Counted from the stretch's first letter, positions 41,133 to 49,167 are shown. The stretch: 64,000 bases of DNA from an uncultured Bacillota bacterium (GCA_963804645.1 CAWDRG010000015.1:416001-480000); one strand, 5' to 3'. Translations and numbers: made by a program. The notes: a model not told the origin generated them from the sequence alone.

Positions 41133-43152
41133 GCGCGTAGCCCGTAAGCTCGTCACCGCCAGCGGGTGAAAGTCCCGTCCAGGTAATCGCCAGGGAGCCT
41201 GGTAGCAGGCTCCCTGGCGGCGTCAGGGGGAAACGCTTGACGCCGAAGCCCAGCGTCGGAAGCCTCACGGAGGTAGCAACCGAGCGGTCCGCAGCATGAC
41301 GTGAAGTCTGCCGCGGCGTTAGACCAGCCCGAAAGGGACCAAGGGGGAGCCGAGCCCGGAATACCAGGGCGAAGGCCACGGAAGGCGTGGAGAGCCTGGA
41401 AATGCAGCGCCGAAGAACCCCCCGCCGTAAGGGGCGCGGAACGTTCGGACGGTGGTGACGGGAACTGGAGAGGCCCTCCCCGGCCCCGGGTCTGCGATCC
41501 GGGAGCAGCCAGTGCGTATAACCGCCAAACGGGAAGTCGCACTGAGCCGGGAGGGCGTCGGATGGGGCCATATTAGCGACGACCGGCGGGACAACATAAC
41601 CCGCCCGAGCGAAGGGCCCCTGCTTCGTCCACGTTTGTGGGAGAGGGAGGAACTGGTGCATGGCCGTGAGGCCCAACAACACCCTCGATAAAGTTCGAGC
41701 CCTTCAACACAAACTGTACCGGACGGCCAAGCAGTCGCCGAATCGACGTTTCCACGCGCTGTATGACCGGGTCCATCGCAGGGACGTTCTCCGGCGCGCG
41801 TGGTTGGAGGTGCGCGCCAACCAGGGAGCACCGGGAATCGACGCCATCACCATCGCGGATATTGAGGCGGCCGGCGTAGAGGTGTTCCTTGACGACCTAG
41901 AGGCCAGCCTGCGCGACGGGACGTACCGTCCGCAGCCGCTGCGGCGCGTCTGGATTCCCAAACCGGGCAAGCCGGACAAGCTGCGTCCGCTTGGGATCGC
42001 GAACGTGCGGGACCGGGTGGTCCAGCAAGCGCTGAAGATCGTCATCGAACCGATCTTCGAGGCGGACTTTCTGCCCTGCTCGTACGGGTTTCGGCCCCGG
42101 CGAGACGCCCATCAAGCATTGCAAGCAATGCGGGAGGCAATTCGGGCAGGAAGGACATGGGTGGTGGATGCCGACATCGAGAGTTGCTTCGATCGACTTG
42201 CGCATGGCCGCATCCTGGAGTGTCTCCGGGAGCGGATCAGCGACCGGAAGGTCGTGGAGCTCATTCGGTGCATCCTGTCCGCCGGGATACTCGACAGCGG
42301 TACGCTGACGACCCCGACGGAGGGCTCTCCACAAGGTGGGCCGCTCTCGCCAGTCCTGGCTAACGTGGTCCTGCATCATTTGGACCGAGCCTGGATGACG
42401 GAGCACCAGCCGTTGGGAGTGCTCGTTCGCTACTGTGACGATCTTTGCATCTGCTGCTCAACTCGGGAGAAGGCTGAAGCCGCGAAGGCGGTTTTGGCAA
42501 CAACCCTGGAAGAGCTGGGGCTGACATTGTCCGGCCCCAAGACGCAGATCGTTGGAGTCGCAAGCGGGAGCGCGGGATATGACTTTCTGGGTTTCCATCA
42601 TCAGATGGTGCCCTCGCGGCGTAGACCGAGCTTTCGCTATCCGGCGTGCTGGCCGAGTGCCAAAGCCGTGCTCCGGTGCCGTTCTCGGATTCGGGAACTC
42701 ACCGGGCGCAATCGTCGCCACGTCCCCACGCACACGGTTGTGGGCGACCTCAATCGTTTTCTCGGGGGATGGCGCGAGTACTATCGGTATGGCAACTCGA
42801 CTCGTTGCTTCGCCAAGTTGGACCGGTATACGGTCGAACGAATGGCGTTGCTGCTCTCCAAACGACATGGACGGAACGGGCGGGGACGCGGCATGAAGTA
42901 CATCATCATGTCCGGCAACCGCCTCAGTTTGCTCCGGTTGGTCGGAAGCGTTCGATTCGAGCGGGGCGAAAACCGTCGGTGAAGGACGTCGGTGAGCCGA
43001 GTGACCGGAAAGGTCATGCTCGGATCGATGAGGAGGGGTTGGAAACGTGTGTCGCCCGGGACGAGGGCTGGAGGCTGCAAGCCACCGATGGAGGTGGACA
43101 GGCTGTACCCCTAATCGGCAGGGCGGCGCGGCGCGCCAACTCCTTACTCTAC
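41133..43152 (+). mobile_element. Group II intron (ribozyme plus intron-encoded RT)
   Basis: 5' structured RNA with GGGTGAAAGTCCC; domain V GAGCCGAGTGACCGGAAAGGTCATGCTCGGATC (42994-43026, AGC triad); 3' end CCTTACTCTAC; 5' boundary tentative. Confidence 0.9.
41660..42982 (+). CDS. ltrA: Group II intron reverse transcriptase/maturase, no endonuclease domain
   Basis: RFHALYD, GAPGID, RPLGI...DRVVQ, SYGFRP, GSPQGGPLSP, RYCDD, FLGF, X-domain GWREYY. Confidence 0.95.
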   Translation: MAVRPNNTLDKVRALQHKLYRTAKQSPNRRFHALYDRVHRRDVLRRAWLEVRANQGAPGIDAITIADIEAAGVEVFLDDLEASLRDGTYRPQPLRRVWIPKPGKPDKLRPLGIANVRDRVVQQALKIVIEPIFEADFLPCSYGFRPRRDAHQALQAMREAIRAGRTWVVDADIESCFDRLAHGRILECLRERISDRKVVELIRCILSAGILDSGTLTTPTEGSPQGGPLSPVLANVVLHHLDRAWMTEHQPLGVLVRYCDDLCICCSTREKAEAAKAVLATTLEELGLTLSGPKTQIVGVASGSAGYDFLGFHHQMVPSRRRPSFRYPACWPSAKAVLRCRSRIRELTGRNRRHVPTHTVVGDLNRFLGGWREYYRYGNSTRCFAKLDRYTVERMALLLSKRHGRNGRGRGMKYIIMSGNRLSLLRLVGSVRFERGENRR

Positions 43153-43671: not shown

Positions 43672-43777
43672 TGCGTATTCCGATGAATTCGTCCAGCAAT
43701 TCCGGGGTTATTCGTCCACCGATTCCAATTTGAAATCGTCCACCCGTTCCAACGGATTCCGACCAAGCCTCGGAGCG

Positions 43778-44257
43778 TCAGCGACGGCGCGGCTTCTCCT
43801 CCCCGGGTTGATTTGACGGTCCCTTGCCCATTACCTTGCGCATCGACTCTCCTTTCTTAAGACTGAGCTTGTGCGCATGGTGCACCAGCCGATCGAGAAT
43901 CGCGTCCGCCACTGTGGGATGGGCGATCGCCGAGTGCAGGTTCTCGAGGGGCAACTGAGACGCGATGAGGGTCGCGCGCGCCTGCACCCGATCCTCGATC
44001 ACCTCCAAGAGTTCGCGGGCGTCCGGCGCCGCGAGGGGCGCCAAGCCCCAATCATCGAGGATGAGCAGGTGCGCCTTCGCGAGTCGGGTCAGCAGCCGCG
44101 GGTACGACCCATCCGCATGCGCGAGGTTGAGATCGGAGAGCAGCCGCGGCACGCGATAGTAGCGGGTGCTGAAGCCCTGGCGACACGCCGCATTGCCCAA
44201 GGCGCACGCGAGCCACGACGCGGGTCACGCTCGTCTTGGTGCTGTCGGATACCACTG
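43778..44257 (-). pseudogene. istB: IS21 helper ATPase, 3' part
   Basis: [38 protein letters not shown]; Walker A region degraded and 5' part missing. Confidence 0.92.
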
Positions 44258-45870
44258 TCTTTGAAAGTCAAACGGAAATTGCCTGACACAGGGATCGCCA
44301 ACTGTATTTCGAGGCGTTCCTCGGTGACAATCACGCGTTCGACGAGAAGGCGCAGGATGGTCTGTTTGGTATCAAAGTCCGCTTCCAGCAGGTGAGGCCG
44401 CAGCTGTTCGACGAGGGCGGCGGCACCATCGGCCCGGGTGCGAGTCACTTCCGCCTCCAGGCGCGCCGTTTTCAGTTCCGCCAGTGCAAGCTCGGCTGAG
44501 CGGAGCGACTCCTCGACGACTTCAGTCCGTGTGCGAAAGACTGCAAGAGAGAGGGCACCGAGCTGATACGCATCGGTGAGGCGATCGCGCTGCCGGCACA
44601 GCTCCTTGACCCGTTGCTCAGCGTGCTGAAACTGCGGATCCCGTTCCGGCCGCGTCGTGGTCGTTCGCTCCACCCAGGCCGCGAGCTGCTGGTGTAGCTC
44701 GTCCGAGTTGAGCAGCAGATCGCGGACGGTGGTCCAGACGGCCTCGTTCACCCCCGCGACATGAAGGCGCCAGTTTTTACAGCGGTGACGTAACCCACTG
44801 TTGATCGTCGTAATGCGTGCACAGCAGGTGTAATAGTGGTAGAGGTATTGACTGCCGTCGCGGCGGCGTCGGGGTTCATGGTGAGTTTCGCCGACGTACG
44901 CGTGACCGCAGACGCCACATTTGAGGAGGCCTTTGAGAAGAAAGACGCCCTCCTGCTTCAGCCGCCGGCGCGCGAACCGCCGATTCTCCTGGATGCGCTG
45001 TTGCACACGCGCAAAGAGTGGTTCGTCGATGATAGGCGGGACAGCCACCGCGATCCATTCCGCGGGAGGCCGCGGGATCAAGGTCATCTTTGCGATCTTC
45101 CGCCCTGAGCCATCGGGCCCGGATCGCTCGTTGCTGCGGCTCCGGGTGCGATTGTAGTAGGCCTTGCCGATGTACCACTCGCATCGCAGCATGCGCAACA
45201 CGGTCGTCCCTGTCCACGTGGGCTTGCCGCACTGAGGCCGCCACGGGGAGACGTTGAGACGTTGCAGCAGTTTGTACAGCGTCATCCCGTCTTCGGCGTA
45301 CCACGCGAAGATCTGACGGACCGTCGTCGCTTCTTCTTCATGGATGCGGATACGCCCGTCCCCGCCATAGCGCTTTGGCGCATAGCGGTAGCCATACGGA
45401 GGATGACTGTGGCCAAGCTCTCCCAGCCGGGCGCGATAGAGACGCCCGCGGCGACATCGCTCGAGAATCTTGGCCCGTTCGTATTCGGCGATCGCGCCTT
45501 GGATCTGCAACAACAGTTGATCATCTGGCGAATCGGTGATGGGGCGCTCGCAAAAGTGGACCGGCACGCCGACACGCGCGAGCTCCTCGATCAACAGCAC
45601 TTGGTACGCATACTTGCGCGCGAGCCGATCCGGACAGAGCACCACGAGGGCCTGAAACCGTCCTTCGCGTGCGTGATCGCGTAACTCGTCCAGCGCTGGC
45701 CGATCGAGACGGCTGCCGCTGAAGCCTTCGTCGATATAGGTGAGCGCCGCCATCGTGTGGTATCCGTGATCCTCTGCGTAGTGTCTAATGGCAGCCAACT
45801 GGCTCTGGATGGTCTGCTCCTGTTCTTGCAGTTCCGTCGACACCCGTGCATACAACGCGGTCATGGTCAT
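44089..45870 (-). CDS. Large serine recombinase (resolvase, recombinase, Zn-ribbon, coiled coil)
   Basis: ALYARVST catalytic Ser, DEGFSG...[29 protein letters not shown]; last ~55 codons derive from flanking istB DNA. Confidence 0.95.
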
Positions 45871-46236
45871 GGCGGCCTCCTCGGCGCGAGGCGATCAGGT
45901 TCACCAGCACCTCATGCAAACGCGCGGCGCGGACGTGCGCATCTGCGGTGCCAACGGGAACGACTTCCACATGATACGGCTCCGCTGCGGTGACGCCCCA
46001 GGCGTGGCCTGCAGGATCGCGGTCGAGAAGGCCAAGCATGCCGAAACGCTCCACGCGCGTCAGAAGAAACCGCGCCACGCTGGTCTGGGGACGCTCGTGG
46101 CTCGGCAATAACATGTAACTCCGGACGGTCTCGTAGCGCTGTTGGGCAAGACCACCGAGCGCCGCGAATGGGACCGTGAGTGGCTCGGGAGGCAACTCGG
46201 GAGTCGGCGCGAGGGGCGCGGCGCTTCCATCAGCGG
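45785..46236 (-). CDS. Small hypothetical protein of the recombinase element
   Basis: Open frame between the HTH gene and the recombinase (AQQRYETVRSYML...RFGMLGL); no clear start codon, start uncertain. Confidence 0.55.
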
Positions 46237-46688
46237 TTTTTTTTGACGCGCGCGGCAAGCAGGCGCTCGATCGTTCGGCGATGCACATCGATGCCTTGCT
46301 CGGCTGCCAGGCGCTGCGCGATTTCCTGCCCACTCAATTCGGGATGCGCCCGCAGCAGTGTCTCGACCCATCGCACGGCGTCGGGCGTCAGCTTGAGCGG
46401 CCCGCGGCGCCCGCGCTTTTCATCGGTAAGGCCGACAACGCCGAACGCCTGGAAGTCGCGCAACGTCACATAAAACGTTTCCCGCGAAAAGCCAAACTCA
46501 CGTGCGACCATGGTTACATGCTGGCCGTCGAGCGCGTGGGCGCGCAACATCTCATATTTAACCTGCACCTTGTCCAAAGGGTCGAAGAAACGATGCCGTA
46601 CGAACAGCGACGCCCGCACGTGCTCGGGATGCAGATGCAGGGCGCCGATGGACTCGAGGAACGCGCGTTTCGGATGCCGGCTCGGCAT
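46230..46688 (-). CDS. Helix-turn-helix DNA-binding protein of the recombinase element
   Basis: FFDPLDKVQVKYEMLR, AREFGFSRETFY, KRGRRGPLKL, VHRRTIERLL; RBS GGAGG. Confidence 0.85.
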   Translation of the reverse strand: MPSRHPKRAFLESIGALHLHPEHVRASLFVRHRFFDPLDKVQVKYEMLRAHALDGQHVTMVAREFGFSRETFYVTLRDFQAFGVVGLTDEKRGRRGPLKLTPDAVRWVETLLRAHPELSGQEIAQRLAAEQGIDVHRRTIERLLAARVKKNR

Positions 46689-47050
46689 GCACCACCTCCG
46701 TTGGCGCCAGCATAGGCTCCCTGGAGCGTTATGTCAAGTATTGTATGACGCACACATCTCCCTCGCCCGGGGCCTCGAAAGATAACCGCGTTTCTTTATG
46801 CATCACTACGGTGGAATCCGAGCGACCGCGCGTTCCACTGTCAAGTGGTCGAATCTGATCGCCATAGATTACCGGACACTTTTCGCGCCCGATTGCCTTT
46901 GAGCCTGCCTGCCGCTATCTCCTTCTGTGTGCGGCGTTGCCGGCGCAGGACCCACCAGCCCGTATAGTCGTCCGTGACTACCGAAAAGCGGATCCGGTGA
47001 TTTGAGATTCTAAGACAAGCACCTCGCTGACGCCGCCGAAATAGTCAAGG

Positions 47051-48458
47051 AGTCAATACCAAAGTTCGTTGAGAAATAGGGGAGCGACCACCCGGCATGG
47101 TCACGCCGCCGGCACCTCCTTCCCCAACGCACGTTGTAGCGCTTCGCGAAGTTTAGGCAGCGCCCGGTAGCCGCGCACCCGGCGCAGCCGCGGTTCGATG
47201 TCCAGCAACGCGCTCGCCAGCCACCGCTGTTTCTGATCACTCGTGCGCCACCGATCGACTTTGCCGGTCCGCGCTTCCACCTGCGCCATCACCGACTCCA
47301 GCGCGTTCGTGGTCTTGAAGCTGCGGCCCAGCTCGCCGACGACGCCAAGCCGGTGCAGCGTCAGGGTTTCGTCCAGGCCCTCGGCCAGACTCCGCGCCGC
47401 GCTCTCATTCAGCACCCGGAGCTCACGCGCCAGTCGGTCCAGCGCGGCCTTCGCCTCCGCGTGCGTCGGCTGCTCGTACGCCCGCTGGAGCTTCTGCCGC
47501 CACGTCGCCTGCTGCCCCTTGGGCAGATGCGCGACCACATTCTCGCGCTTGTGCCAGGTGCACCGTTGCACCGCGGCCGCGTCCCCGAAGACCTCCTGGA
47601 CCCCGCGGCGCAGGCCCTTGCTCCCATCGATGACGACCAGCAGGCCTTGCTCGTACCGCAGCCCCCGCGCCACCAGATCGCGCAGCAACTCGGCGCAGAC
47701 CCGGGCGTTCTCGGTGGCGGTTTGCACAAACCCCAGGAGGACCTTGTGGCCTTGGACCGTCACGCCGAGCACGATCACCATCTCGTCCTCGGCGAACGTC
47801 TTGCCATCCAGCAGCACCGCCACCAGATCGTAGCTCTCCAGGCGGCGTTCATTGAGCGCCCGCAGCTGCCGCGCGCTGGCCCGAATGTAGCGCCGGGAGA
47901 CCGTCGACGGCGCCAGCCCAAAGGCCTCGGGCACCGCCTCGGCACACTCCGCATACCGCCGGCAACTCAGGCCCAACAGCACCCGCCGCATCAATCCCTC
48001 ATCCAAGGCCCGGGGTTGCTGGAAGCGCTGGTACGTCTCGAGCGGGACCTCGACGTCGCGGAGCTGATCACGCACACGCTGATAAACAATCGGGAGTTTT
48101 TGATCGCCCAGGTACACCGAGCCACGCTCCTTGCTCCAGCGGACGTGGCCGGGCCGGCCACCCTCACGCGCGTAGCGCGCCCCGGCGAGGCTCCTCGACC
48201 TCCCGCTGTAACACGTCCCGCACGGCCTCCAAGCCCGAGGGGAATGAGCGCCTGGATCACGGCCACCCGCGTGCCCAGATCCTCAGCCAACTCCCCCGCC
48301 TGCCGCCGGCCGACAAACTGCACCTGGCCCTTTGCGCCCACACGTAGTACCTTAGACATGGAGCGTCCTCCTCAGCACGGTTTGTGGACTTGTCCGCAAA
48401 CAATCCATTCACCATGCCGGGGGTCGCTCCCTATTTCTCAACGGACTTAACACACACC
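47051..48458 (-). mobile_element. IS256-family insertion sequence inside istA
   Basis: About 50-bp imperfect IRs (AAGTTCGTTGAGAAATAGGGGAGCGACC vs AAGTCCGTTGAGAAATAGGGAGCGACC); flanking AGTCAAGG (47043-47050) and AGTCAAAGG (48459-48467); removal restores istA RAFDYFGGV. Confidence 0.92.
47101..48359 (-). CDS. IS256-family (Mutator-like) transposase, frameshifted near 48180-48230
   Basis: LLDGK, VIDGSKGL, QRCTWHKREN, TTNALES motifs. Confidence 0.9.
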
Positions 48459-49059
48459 AGTCAAAGGCACGCGTGTGGGCGCCGATCCAGATCGGCTGCG
48501 TCTGGGCGAGGGCGCCCTCAAGGTAGGTGAAGTTGCTCATGCCCAGCGTGGCGACGAAGATGGACACGTCCCGGACCTGCCCCGTCGCCGGGTCCACGAT
48601 CGCCAGCGTGAGGCCCGCCCAGTCGACGAACATCTTCTCGCCCGCGCGGTGCGGCTGTCGGAGGACCACATCGAGCTTGCCTTCCCACCGGCGATCCCGC
48701 TCGCAGAACCGGCTGTACTGGTACCCGTCGGGATAATCGCGGCGGTACTCCTGCCACAAGAGCCGCAGGGTCACCCCTTTGCGGCGCAGTTCCCGATAGA
48801 TCGCCTCCCACGCTGGCTCCCCCCGGCCCGCGGTCTGCCCCGCCGTCGGTGGGTAAAGCTTGCCTTCCAGCGTGGCATCGTCGAGCTCGGCAGGCAGGGG
48901 CCATGCCAGGCCCAATGCCGCGGCTCGATGGAGCACGCCCATGACGGTGCTGTGCGCCAGGCCCAGGCTCTGGGTGATCTGCCGGCCCGCCAACTGATGC
49001 TCAGTGTGCAGCCGAAGAATATCGCGAACGTTGCGCATCGGTAGTCTCCTGCGTGCCAC
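48459..49059 (-). pseudogene. istA: IS21 transposase, 5' part (short continuation at about 47000-47050)
   Basis: RLPMRNVRDILRL, GVTLRLLWQEY, GYQYSRFC, HRAGEKMFVDWAG, FVATLGMSNFTY. Confidence 0.93.
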
Positions 49060-49167
49060 GGTGCTCGCACCCCGCTCCCGGTGAGTCATGCTCACCGGGG
49101 TTGCGGTGGAGTAACACGAACACCTGTACGCCTCGACTGCCGACGCTCACGATGGCCGAAATGCCCC

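Follow-up and report, generated by a model that had tools for sequence, protein, structure and literature searches.

A cargo-free serine-recombinase element in an IS21 transposase gene whose recombinase C-terminus is probably encoded at the opposite element end

A recombinase gene that has no stop codon of its own raises the question of where the C-terminus of its product is encoded. Such a gene is found in the stretch of DNA analysed in this study, 64,000 nucleotides from an uncultured Bacillota bacterium (GCA_963804645.1 CAWDRG010000015.1:416001-480000), which is referred to below as the window. The initial annotation of the window described a mobile unit resembling an insertion sequence (IS), composed of a helix-turn-helix (HTH) gene, a small open reading frame (ORF; here ORF2) and a large serine recombinase (LSR), and proposed that the target DNA supplies the C-terminus of the recombinase. 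In this study, we found that the element also encodes, at its opposite (left) end, an in-frame tail that is probably the real C-terminus of the recombinase. The attachment (att) site of the circular form, attP, would then lie inside the recombinase gene, which is split on integration. We put the probability of this reading at roughly 0.72. The features on which it is based are as follows.

44256..47017, minus strand: mobile element, 2,762 bp; its circle with one crossover dinucleotide has 2,764 bp
44257..45870, minus strand: recombinase body, 538 element-encoded codons with the canonical LSR domains
44089..44255, minus strand: read-through of the recombinase frame into the target, 55 codons including the junction codon at 44256, with TGA at 44089-44091; outside the element
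46844..47017, minus strand: recombinase tail, 58 codons (CLRISNHRIRFSVVTDDYTGWW...), stop codon at 46841-46843; in frame with the body via the 2-nt crossover
44256..44274, minus strand: right att arm (P arm), the 12-mer CGTTTGACTTTC and the 7 nt AAAGACA; an imperfect inverted repeat of the left arm
46999..47017, minus strand: left att arm (P' arm), the 7 nt TGTCTTA and the 12-mer GAATCTCAAATC
44254..44255, minus strand: crossover dinucleotide of the right junction, GT on this strand; within the stretch skipped by empty-site contigs
47018..47019, minus strand: crossover dinucleotide of the left junction, CT on this strand

The ends of the element were determined by comparing two copies. The host genome (G000; 22 contigs, 5.3 Mb, 68.6% GC) contains, besides the copy in the window (copy A), a second copy (copy B) at G000:C4:170702-173463, which is 98.4% identical to copy A over 2,763 columns. 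The match stops exactly at window positions 44256 and 47017, with the same ends in both copies, and the element is therefore 2,762 bp long. At the right end, the recombinase frame reads ...TFKD and then a single base (44256), with which the junction codon starts. The initial annotation had placed this end at about 44260, which was nearly right, but it missed 257 bp at the left end, which lies at 47017. Between the two ends there are only the HTH gene, ORF2 and the recombinase gene, three overlapping ORFs that are all on the minus strand. ORF calls and Pfam searches confirmed the earlier description of three co-oriented genes with no cargo, phage or conjugation genes. The element has the properties by which an IS is defined, being short, with mobility genes only, defined ends and more than one copy. 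The autonomous serine-recombinase element proposed initially is supported by these ends, and its suggested check for further copies was answered within the same genome by copy B with its identical boundaries. A DNA search of 60 relatives found no close copy of the element, only weak matches at 65-69% identity, and an Rfam scan of 43700-47300 gave no match at E values up to 0.1.

Logan contigs (contigs, not raw reads) of four metagenome runs, X1 to X4, were aligned to the region. Contigs in three of the four runs (X1, X2 and X4, from two studies) join position 44253 to 47018. This joint skips 2,764 bp, which corresponds to the element plus 2 nt, with a shorter side of only 30-31 nt. The joint is the uninterrupted target, whether ancestral or restored by excision. 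Run X3, from another study, contains a copy at about 95% identity, the flanks of which are the same over 17 nt (left) and 37 nt (right) and then give way to different DNA. When an exact 28-mer of the right end was searched against metagenome contigs, the one match was the copy A insertion, with no new target and no junction.

The recombinase ORF as read in the window covers 44089-45870 on the minus strand and encodes 593 aa, of which 538 codons belong to the element and 55 to the read-through. Pfam matched Resolvase (PF00239) at residues 5-150 (E 2e-33), Recombinase (PF07508) at 178-296 and Zn_ribbon_recom (PF13408) at 311-383, and the nucleophile S11 in YARVS was nearly invariant across 26 sequences. 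The domain order is that of LSRs, with the recombinase domain followed by a zinc ribbon with an embedded coiled coil. SPbeta SprA/YokA (9dxh) was aligned to residues 51-517. The AlphaFold2 (AF2) model of the body, with a predicted local distance difference test (pLDDT) score of 75, contained the catalytic, recombinase and zinc-ribbon domains and a long coiled coil; residues 317-362 formed a beta-ribbon, 371-495 long helices and 510-524 a closing beta-hairpin, whereas 525-538 were disordered. The SprA, PhiC31, Bxb1 and LI integrases were the top Foldseek matches of this model. These results indicate that the 538 element-encoded residues hold a complete LSR.

Beyond these residues the frame leaves the element. 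In copy B it runs through 10 different flank codons to a different stop. A scan for relatives, with one genome per species, found 79 loci. The nine closest (L016-L024, 57-66% identity) are referred to as group 1. Wherever a group-1 right end lies inside its contig (7/7 loci), the frame continues for 18 to 618 unrelated codons or past the contig end. Group 2 is about 40% identical, has elements of about 1.95-2.0 kb and carries the recombinase only; its recombinases are also without their own stop, the frame ending ...LR[ST]D[GR][VLM] and then diverging. The C-terminal ends of 87 database homologues of 298-718 aa were unrelated to one another. Farther recombinases, for example that of L087, have their own stop codon. 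The absence of a stop codon, as noted in the initial annotation, thus holds for both copies and for the seven close relatives, and a fixed element-encoded stop was found neither in close relatives nor in group 2. A C-terminus supplied by the target is only how the gene appears in the integrated state, and the initial annotation did not include the in-frame tail at the other end, which appears to be selected.

At the left end of group-1 elements, a reading frame is open from the first base in 11/11 elements, one of them truncated by the contig end. Its consensus is xLRISNxRIRFxxxTDxYxxWWxxxRxRR, with invariant T15, W21, W22 and R26 and no start codon of its own. The third codon positions are the most divergent (0.53 vs 0.39 and 0.36). 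Beyond the att arm, the median dN/dS of this frame was 0.39, compared with 0.89 and 1.86 in the other frames, which are closed in 5 and 6 of 9 sequences. Group 2 has a tail that is unrelated to that of group 1 and reads H[DGN]PNAIDxxRFxxxxPFxGAG...RRRRxDAxFP. With a strict pattern it was found in 22/68 loci, where it lies 320-370 nt ahead of the recombinase start. Here dN/dS was 0.22 beyond the att arm, against 1.8 and 2.0 in the other frames, and one stop is conserved after ...DAxFP in 19/22 loci, the remaining three extending by 2-4 residues. The conserved tail is 40-58 codons long in the clade. Judged from these codon patterns, the tail appears to be under purifying selection.

The junctions were examined for traces of the crossover. 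The flanking dinucleotides are equal on both sides in six of the nine group-1 elements with both ends, namely AC in copy B, TA in L018 (located at contig ends), GA in L019, TC in L021, AC in L023 and GA in L024. In group 2 the crossover is fixed: TG stands directly before the first tail codon in 22/22 loci and forms positions 2-3 of the last recombinase codon in 19/19 loci, this codon always being V, L or M. This dinucleotide pattern is characteristic of a 2-bp crossover by a serine recombinase, and it is consistent with the 2,764 bp skipped in the empty-site contigs. The att sites are short, with inverted-repeat arms around the 2-bp crossover, as in LSRs. The geometry was assumed to be a right arm of 12-mer and 7 nt, the 2 nt, and a left arm of 7 nt and 12-mer. 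With this 7+2+7 geometry, tail and recombinase share a frame in 8/9 elements. Since the last element base, codon position 1, and the dinucleotide make up one codon, the tail is in frame with the body, and copy A gives 538 + 1 + 58 = 597 codons. The earlier placement of the att site in the last element-encoded codons is in line with these findings.

The tail might also be an independent small protein, or be translated from upstream host transcripts, and have nothing to do with the recombinase polypeptide. GTG or ATG is found directly before the group-2 tail in 22/22 attL sites, and in predicted proteomes the tail forms the C-terminus of short ORFs. However, the [GA]TG is explained by the fixed TG crossover, and in group 1 no start codon for the tail is present at the element end or close to it. 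In the short ORFs, the part preceding the tail varies in length between 0 and about 276 residues, and a conserved ribosome-binding site is impossible because the upstream DNA is target DNA, which differs at each site. We consider this explanation very improbable.

A complex of the tail with recombinase residues 300-538 was then predicted, with a score of 0.68 compared with 0.01 for the best of three controls. This mark was reached by 116/157 solved complexes and by 2/215 mismatched pairs, counts that are only a rough guide here as our own alignments were used. The runs agreed in at least 79% of the contacts, and the pLDDT of the partners was at least 57. In the prediction, the zinc-ribbon domain pairs its last beta-strand (520-526) with tail residues 9-15 (IRFSVVT), and tail residues 15-18 are in contact with the coiled-coil base (residues 377-381). 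These results suggest that the tail packs as a beta-strand on the zinc-ribbon/coiled-coil base of the recombinase, as predicted by the model.

Several observations weigh against a recombinase that continues into the tail. The joined protein was not seen: the tail motif was present in none of 81 recombinase homologues of at least 400 aa, and 35 representative tail-bearing proteins were all of 40-313 aa with the tail at the C-terminus, none being recombinase-sized. No back-joint, the junction of a circle, was among the contig joints listed for X1-X4 in the Logan contigs, and the empty-site contigs, with their short side, could represent an ancestral allele and not an excision product. Two of the nine elements, copy A (CT/GT) and L016 (AC/AT), have a one-base difference between the dinucleotides of their two ends, which is disfavoured by textbook LSR chemistry. 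Among the best-supported rows listed for metagenome copies, no base differed at the copy A junctions; the difference in these two elements suggests either that strand exchange tolerates a mismatch of one base or that a mutation arose later. In one of nine elements, L017, the flanks share CAC, the left spacer has 6 nt instead of 7, and body and tail are out of frame; this copy may have decayed. The score for the predicted binding is a measure of model confidence and may be inflated, as the partners are two halves of one protein from a family with solved structures. Finally, an open frame of 40-58 codons is by itself weak evidence in DNA of 63-69% GC.

Some of these points would also be expected if target-encoded residues form the C-terminus of the recombinase whatever the state of the element. 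The conserved left-end stretch would then be a DNA feature, such as a promoter element, accessory binding sites or a longer att arm. The joined protein is in no database, and the body already has every canonical LSR domain. DNA sites do exist in the region: the motif GTGTCAGGYAAT occurs once near each element end (2 matches vs 0.22 expected) and is kept in relatives. The copy near the right end is given by the following feature.

44278..44289, minus strand: motif GTGTCAGGCAAT, within the PVSGNF codons; second copy at 46868-46879

A DNA feature does not, however, fit the codon-position pattern or the dN/dS of 0.22-0.39, both of which were measured outside the att arm in two clades with unrelated tails and are restricted to the frame that continues the recombinase. 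The closure of the other frames in part of the group-1 sequences, the conserved stop of the group-2 tail and the predicted beta-strand docking far above the controls also speak against it. We regard a DNA feature as unlikely, and the tail as the probable C-terminus of the recombinase.

The split gene could alternatively be of the 'suicidal' SSV type, in which integration kills the recombinase, the copies are trapped relics, and both the copies and the empty site reflect old events or strain differences. Excerpts of one report describe how gene splitting traps archaeal elements (PMC7253208). The recombinase of L024 is broken, L017 has the spacing defect described above, and no circle was among the contig joints. 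Against this, elements of 2-2.8 kb without replication genes need excision to give new copies, and group-2 elements are multi-copy at 99.7-100% identity within single genomes (L026/L028, L085/L086, L067/L090). Furthermore, the split removes only an appendix after the complete LSR domain set, and presence and absence of the element are polymorphic at one locus in metagenomes. A suicidal element is in our judgement quite unlikely, and the copies are better read as those of a mobile element with a split recombinase gene.

The target of the insertion was also investigated. The features around the element are listed below.

47018..47046, minus strand: istA fragment (D)YFGGVSEVL, 29 nt, directly upstream of the insertion
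44219..44255, minus strand: istA fragment of 12 residues, 37 nt, directly downstream of the insertion
43778..44218, minus strand: 3' part of istB from the Walker A motif on (Pfam IstB_IS21 112-232 of 238; NCBIfam IS21_help_AAA)
47047..48457, minus strand: IS256-family element (transpos_IS256, E 1e-59), a further insertion in this istA, lying 29 nt upstream of the recombinase element
48458..49095, minus strand: 5' part of the istA of the host IS21 (ORF 48409-49095; NCBIfam transpos_IS21 1-173 of 294, E 3e-33)

The flanks belong to an IS21, as the initial annotation recognised, but the interrupted gene is istA and not istB, which begins only at 44218. In contigs of X1, X3 and X4 the right flank goes on with ACRYEP(T/D)LNR, and the left flank in X3 is preceded by HIHAFEYF. 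In the IS21 on contig C20 of the host genome, the corresponding IstA region reads YFQGVPEAAMPDNPKTGV. The host IS21 has an internal deletion at 44218/44219, which fuses istA (after ...VTR) to the Walker A region of istB. As X1, X3 and X4 show an undeleted IS21 at the same insertion, the insertion exists in at least two IS21 backgrounds. The IS256-family element has an 86% identical relative at G000:C15:371622-372891, and since the empty-site contigs retain the 29-nt fragment, its insertion may predate that of the recombinase element.

Copy B lies in opposite orientation in a different IS21-family element (neighbours Mu-transpos_C_2 and IstB), at the homologous istA codon, with ...GGVP.EA before and VVCDCLKSGV after the insertion. 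The run-on ends of the database homologues also fall into recurrent classes: by our own rough patterns, 11/87 read xRQSQ, which are the istA PDNLK codons in another frame, and 7/87 read PPLRL, an IS91-type transposase region in another frame. In L017, IS91/ISCR transposase models match the right flank from position 142 on. Among six group-2 loci whose flanks were examined, four (L067, L053, L056 and L068) interrupt an IS256-family transposase gene at about position 254-257 of the Pfam profile, on the opposite strand; L026 is in an ISL3 transposase gene, and L030 is beside an IS66 transposase gene. These flanks indicate that the clade inserts at conserved spots of other transposase genes, with a target choice that is multi-site but not relaxed. 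The relaxed target choice proposed in the initial annotation is not borne out, with both copies at the homologous istA codon and relatives recurring in IS21, IS91 and IS256 transposase genes.

Other mobile DNA of the window and genome was noted in passing. A look-alike of the target, TCAAAGACA, lies beside a truncated istB at about 231,150 of C15 and was rejected as a coincidence, with no recombinase or element end there. At G000:C15:230771-231700 an istB is cut near the same Walker A position and is preceded by unrelated DNA, which encodes a small Cys-rich ORF (MAASQQQYDALKQAV...CGNPGCRC...), with no recombinase nearby. In the window, an ORF of 440 aa on the plus strand (41660-42982) encodes a group II intron reverse transcriptase/maturase with RVT_1 and GIIM domains, about 800 bp past the 3' end of the istB fragment and in the same pile of mobile DNA.

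The two other genes of the element are encoded upstream of the recombinase gene, with the following features.

46230..46688, minus strand: HTH gene, 152 aa; Pfam HTH_32 (E 6e-13), HTH_28, HTH_29 and HTH_23
45785..46243, minus strand: ORF2 in the +1 frame, about 150 codons between the A-run and the stop codon; 45785-46333 as an ORF
46237..46244, minus strand: A8 slippery run, 6 nt before the HTH stop codon
46709..46737, minus strand: promoter-like site TTGACA-17-TATGCT upstream of the HTH gene, 10/12 matches; TTGACA kept in relatives

The HTH protein matched positions 8-107 of 299 of the NCBIfam model transpos_IS630 (E 7e-15, under the curated cutoff) and, more generally, the first approximately 100 positions of IS630 and IS481 transposase models, below their cutoffs. 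By sequence, it resembles the N-terminal DNA-binding part of IS630/IS481-type transposases. ORF2 has the core motif FLxxGGxAQxRYE...RFGLLGLL...VPVGTxDA. It belongs to no family in Pfam, PHROGs or NCBIfam, and these libraries found no DDE catalytic domain in it. Its AF2 model was poor (pLDDT 51), and the best scores in the protein atlas, 0.75-0.77, were below the usable range. ORF2 has no conserved start codon; its conserved part starts in the +1 frame at the A-run (...EKKTAD...). A run of A8-A9 is present at the HTH/ORF2 overlap in 10/10 group-1 elements, and A6 and A9 are found at the same spot in L044 and L057, respectively. Only eight A/T runs of at least 8 exist in the whole genome at its high GC content, two of which are those of the element copies. 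Four of the eight lie within 620 bp at G000:C9:1098454-1099076. From this arrangement, loss of one A in the transcript, or a +1 ribosomal shift, may fuse HTH to ORF2. One database protein, P0004, from a poor source contig, has the HTH and ORF2 parts in one frame. In L057 (4640-5010), the +1 frame after the A9, which is ORF2-like, runs without a stop into the recombinase start, and HTH, ORF2 and recombinase could be made there as one polyprotein.

The initial annotation had proposed HTH and the small ORF as two separate factors, which now look like one slippage-fused product. The linkage of their homologues to the recombinase, which it had asked for, was present in 9/9 close relatives, with HTH, ORF2 and recombinase in the same order. 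The TGTCA-N9-TGACG dyad that it had placed upstream of the HTH gene does exist, but it overlaps the -35 and not the -10 element, and its left half is CGACA instead of CGTCA in 8/9 relatives.

Of the farther relatives, L044 and L057 have the HTH gene, and the remaining 68 loci have neither HTH nor ORF2. The contigs of relatives are often about element-sized. Group-1 hosts are metagenome-assembled genomes labelled Gemmatimonadota, Acidimicrobiia, Anaerolineales, Acidobacteriota and Bacteroidia. In the phylum of the window, the ORF2 profile was found in one of 94 genomes, G000 itself, which points to horizontal acquisition and also means that no empty sites are obtainable from relatives. Relatives at 40% identity or less are carried by 46 PLSDB plasmids from Microvirga, Roseomonas, Rhizobium and others. 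Beneath these matches (H2-H4, H7, H8, H12-H15 and others) there is often no annotated protein, or there are two 'hypothetical proteins'. As the PLSDB table omits pseudogenes, the run-on genes may be annotated as pseudogenes.

We next considered how the element would move. Recombination between its two ends at the 2-bp crossover would produce an excised circle of 2,764 bp and restore the target. In the circle, the two imperfect inverted-repeat arms would form attP, and body and tail would become one gene of 597 codons. The circle would re-insert at attB-like sequences in conserved parts of other IS transposase genes, here the FGGVxxxL/VxDNxK region of IS21 istA (the slash marks the insertion). 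The left-end promoter would drive the HTH gene, slippage at the A8-A9 run would fuse HTH to ORF2, and the recombinase would follow. The tail-less enzyme from integrated copies would recombine attL x attR, possibly helped in group 1 by HTH or HTH-ORF2, and the full-length enzyme would insert the circle at attB-like sites. We infer that this organism produces both the circles and the full-length protein, and that the activity of this protein is not the same as that of the truncated form.

In our preferred reading, a hypothesis of rather low probability, the tail would set or tune the direction of recombination because it is predicted to lie at the base of the coiled coil. It has been reported, in excerpts of a study on PhiC31 integrase, that directionality is controlled at the coiled-coil base (PMC2475636). 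As a tentative extension, the split gene could act as a sensor of state: the integrated element would make only the tail-less form, which would excise with HTH-ORF2 in group 1 and alone in the single-gene group 2, and the tail of the full-length form would dock at the coiled-coil base and lock the integrative mode, with no separate directionality factor. The clade would then be an undescribed serine-recombinase IS family that parasitises transposase motifs of IS21, IS91, IS256 and ISL3 and travels with them. This extension as a whole is possible but doubtful.

The element was compared with known systems. Tn4451 and Tn5397 carry cargo or conjugation genes, and their recombinase gene is wholly internal with its own stop codon. 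The present element would be like Tn4451 (TnpX), Tn5397 (TndX) and the multi-targeting LSR clade in excising as a circle by an LSR, with several insertion sites, a 2-bp crossover and no target duplication beyond the dinucleotide. It differs from the two transposons in its size of 2.76 kb, in being cargo-free and in having attP apparently inside the recombinase ORF. The multi-targeting clade is known from Durrant et al., in excerpts of which 63% of the clade have DUF4368 (bioRxiv 10.1101/2021.11.05.467528); DUF4368 was absent from the Pfam matches of the present recombinase at E values up to 0.01.

IS607 is likewise a minimal IS with a serine recombinase and no classical target duplication (excerpts of PMC6188088 and PMC4058570). 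The serine recombinase of IS607, TnpA, is small, binds DNA through an N-terminal domain, has its catalytic domain at the C-terminus and shows minimal target specificity, whereas the present enzyme has the LSR domain order with an N-terminal catalytic domain, inverted-repeat att arms and recurrent specific targets. The NCBIfam model transpos_IS607 matched the catalytic core only, with 34.6 bits against a cutoff of 110, and the IS607 architecture was not found.

In SSV-type integrases the recombination site is in the integrase ORF, which is split on integration (excerpts of PMC7253208 and PMC8371274). Those enzymes are tyrosine recombinases of archaeal viruses and plasmids, whereas the present one is a serine recombinase of a bacterial IS and does not have the tyrosine recombinase fold. 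In the SSV type the enzyme is disrupted by the split, whereas in the present element the LSR domain set stays complete and a short appendix at the C-terminus is lost. By frame continuity, selection and predicted docking, a location of attP inside the integrase ORF is probably shared with the SSV type, although the joined form was not observed; the present enzyme resembles that family in this one respect and is not a member of it.

In mycobacteriophage BPs and its relatives, the products of the integrated and free states have different C-termini and behave differently. Their integration-dependent immunity resembles the present case in that attP is inside a gene with state-dependent C-termini (excerpts of PMC4557955). 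The split gene of BPs is the repressor, with a tyrosine recombinase as integrase, whereas here it is the recombinase itself.

IS3- and IS630-type elements make an N-terminal HTH product (OrfA) and a longer fusion (OrfAB) by frameshifting or transcriptional slippage on an A-run. The present element is similar in its HTH product and proposed A-run fusion, the slippage being inferred here. It is unlike them in that the downstream ORF2 is not a DDE catalytic domain in the libraries searched. A literature search found neither an LSR with attP in its own ORF nor an LSR-type IS family; subscription journals and ISfinder lay outside this search, and a prior description is therefore possible.

LSRs are leading tools for the insertion of large DNA, and their choice between integration and excision, a central question in the field, is normally set by a separate directionality protein on the coiled coil. 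In the present case, a whole natural clade appears to have its att site within the recombinase gene, and its integrated and circular forms would therefore encode two different enzymes. As these differ by an appendix that is predicted at the coiled-coil base, a cofactor-free directionality switch is directly testable. In genome annotation, the genes have the appearance of 'recombinase family proteins' that are truncated or run on and that vary erratically in length; a number of them may be called pseudogenes. The element belongs to a widespread and apparently undescribed group that inserts into the transposase genes of other mobile elements. This group would add to the IS catalogue a serine-recombinase family of about 2-2.8 kb, with hosts among soil Gemmatimonadota, Acetobacteraceae, Rhizobiales, Planctomycetota and Actinomycetota. 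Insertion at conserved catalytic-motif codons of other transposase genes would make it a case of 'IS on IS' parasitism.

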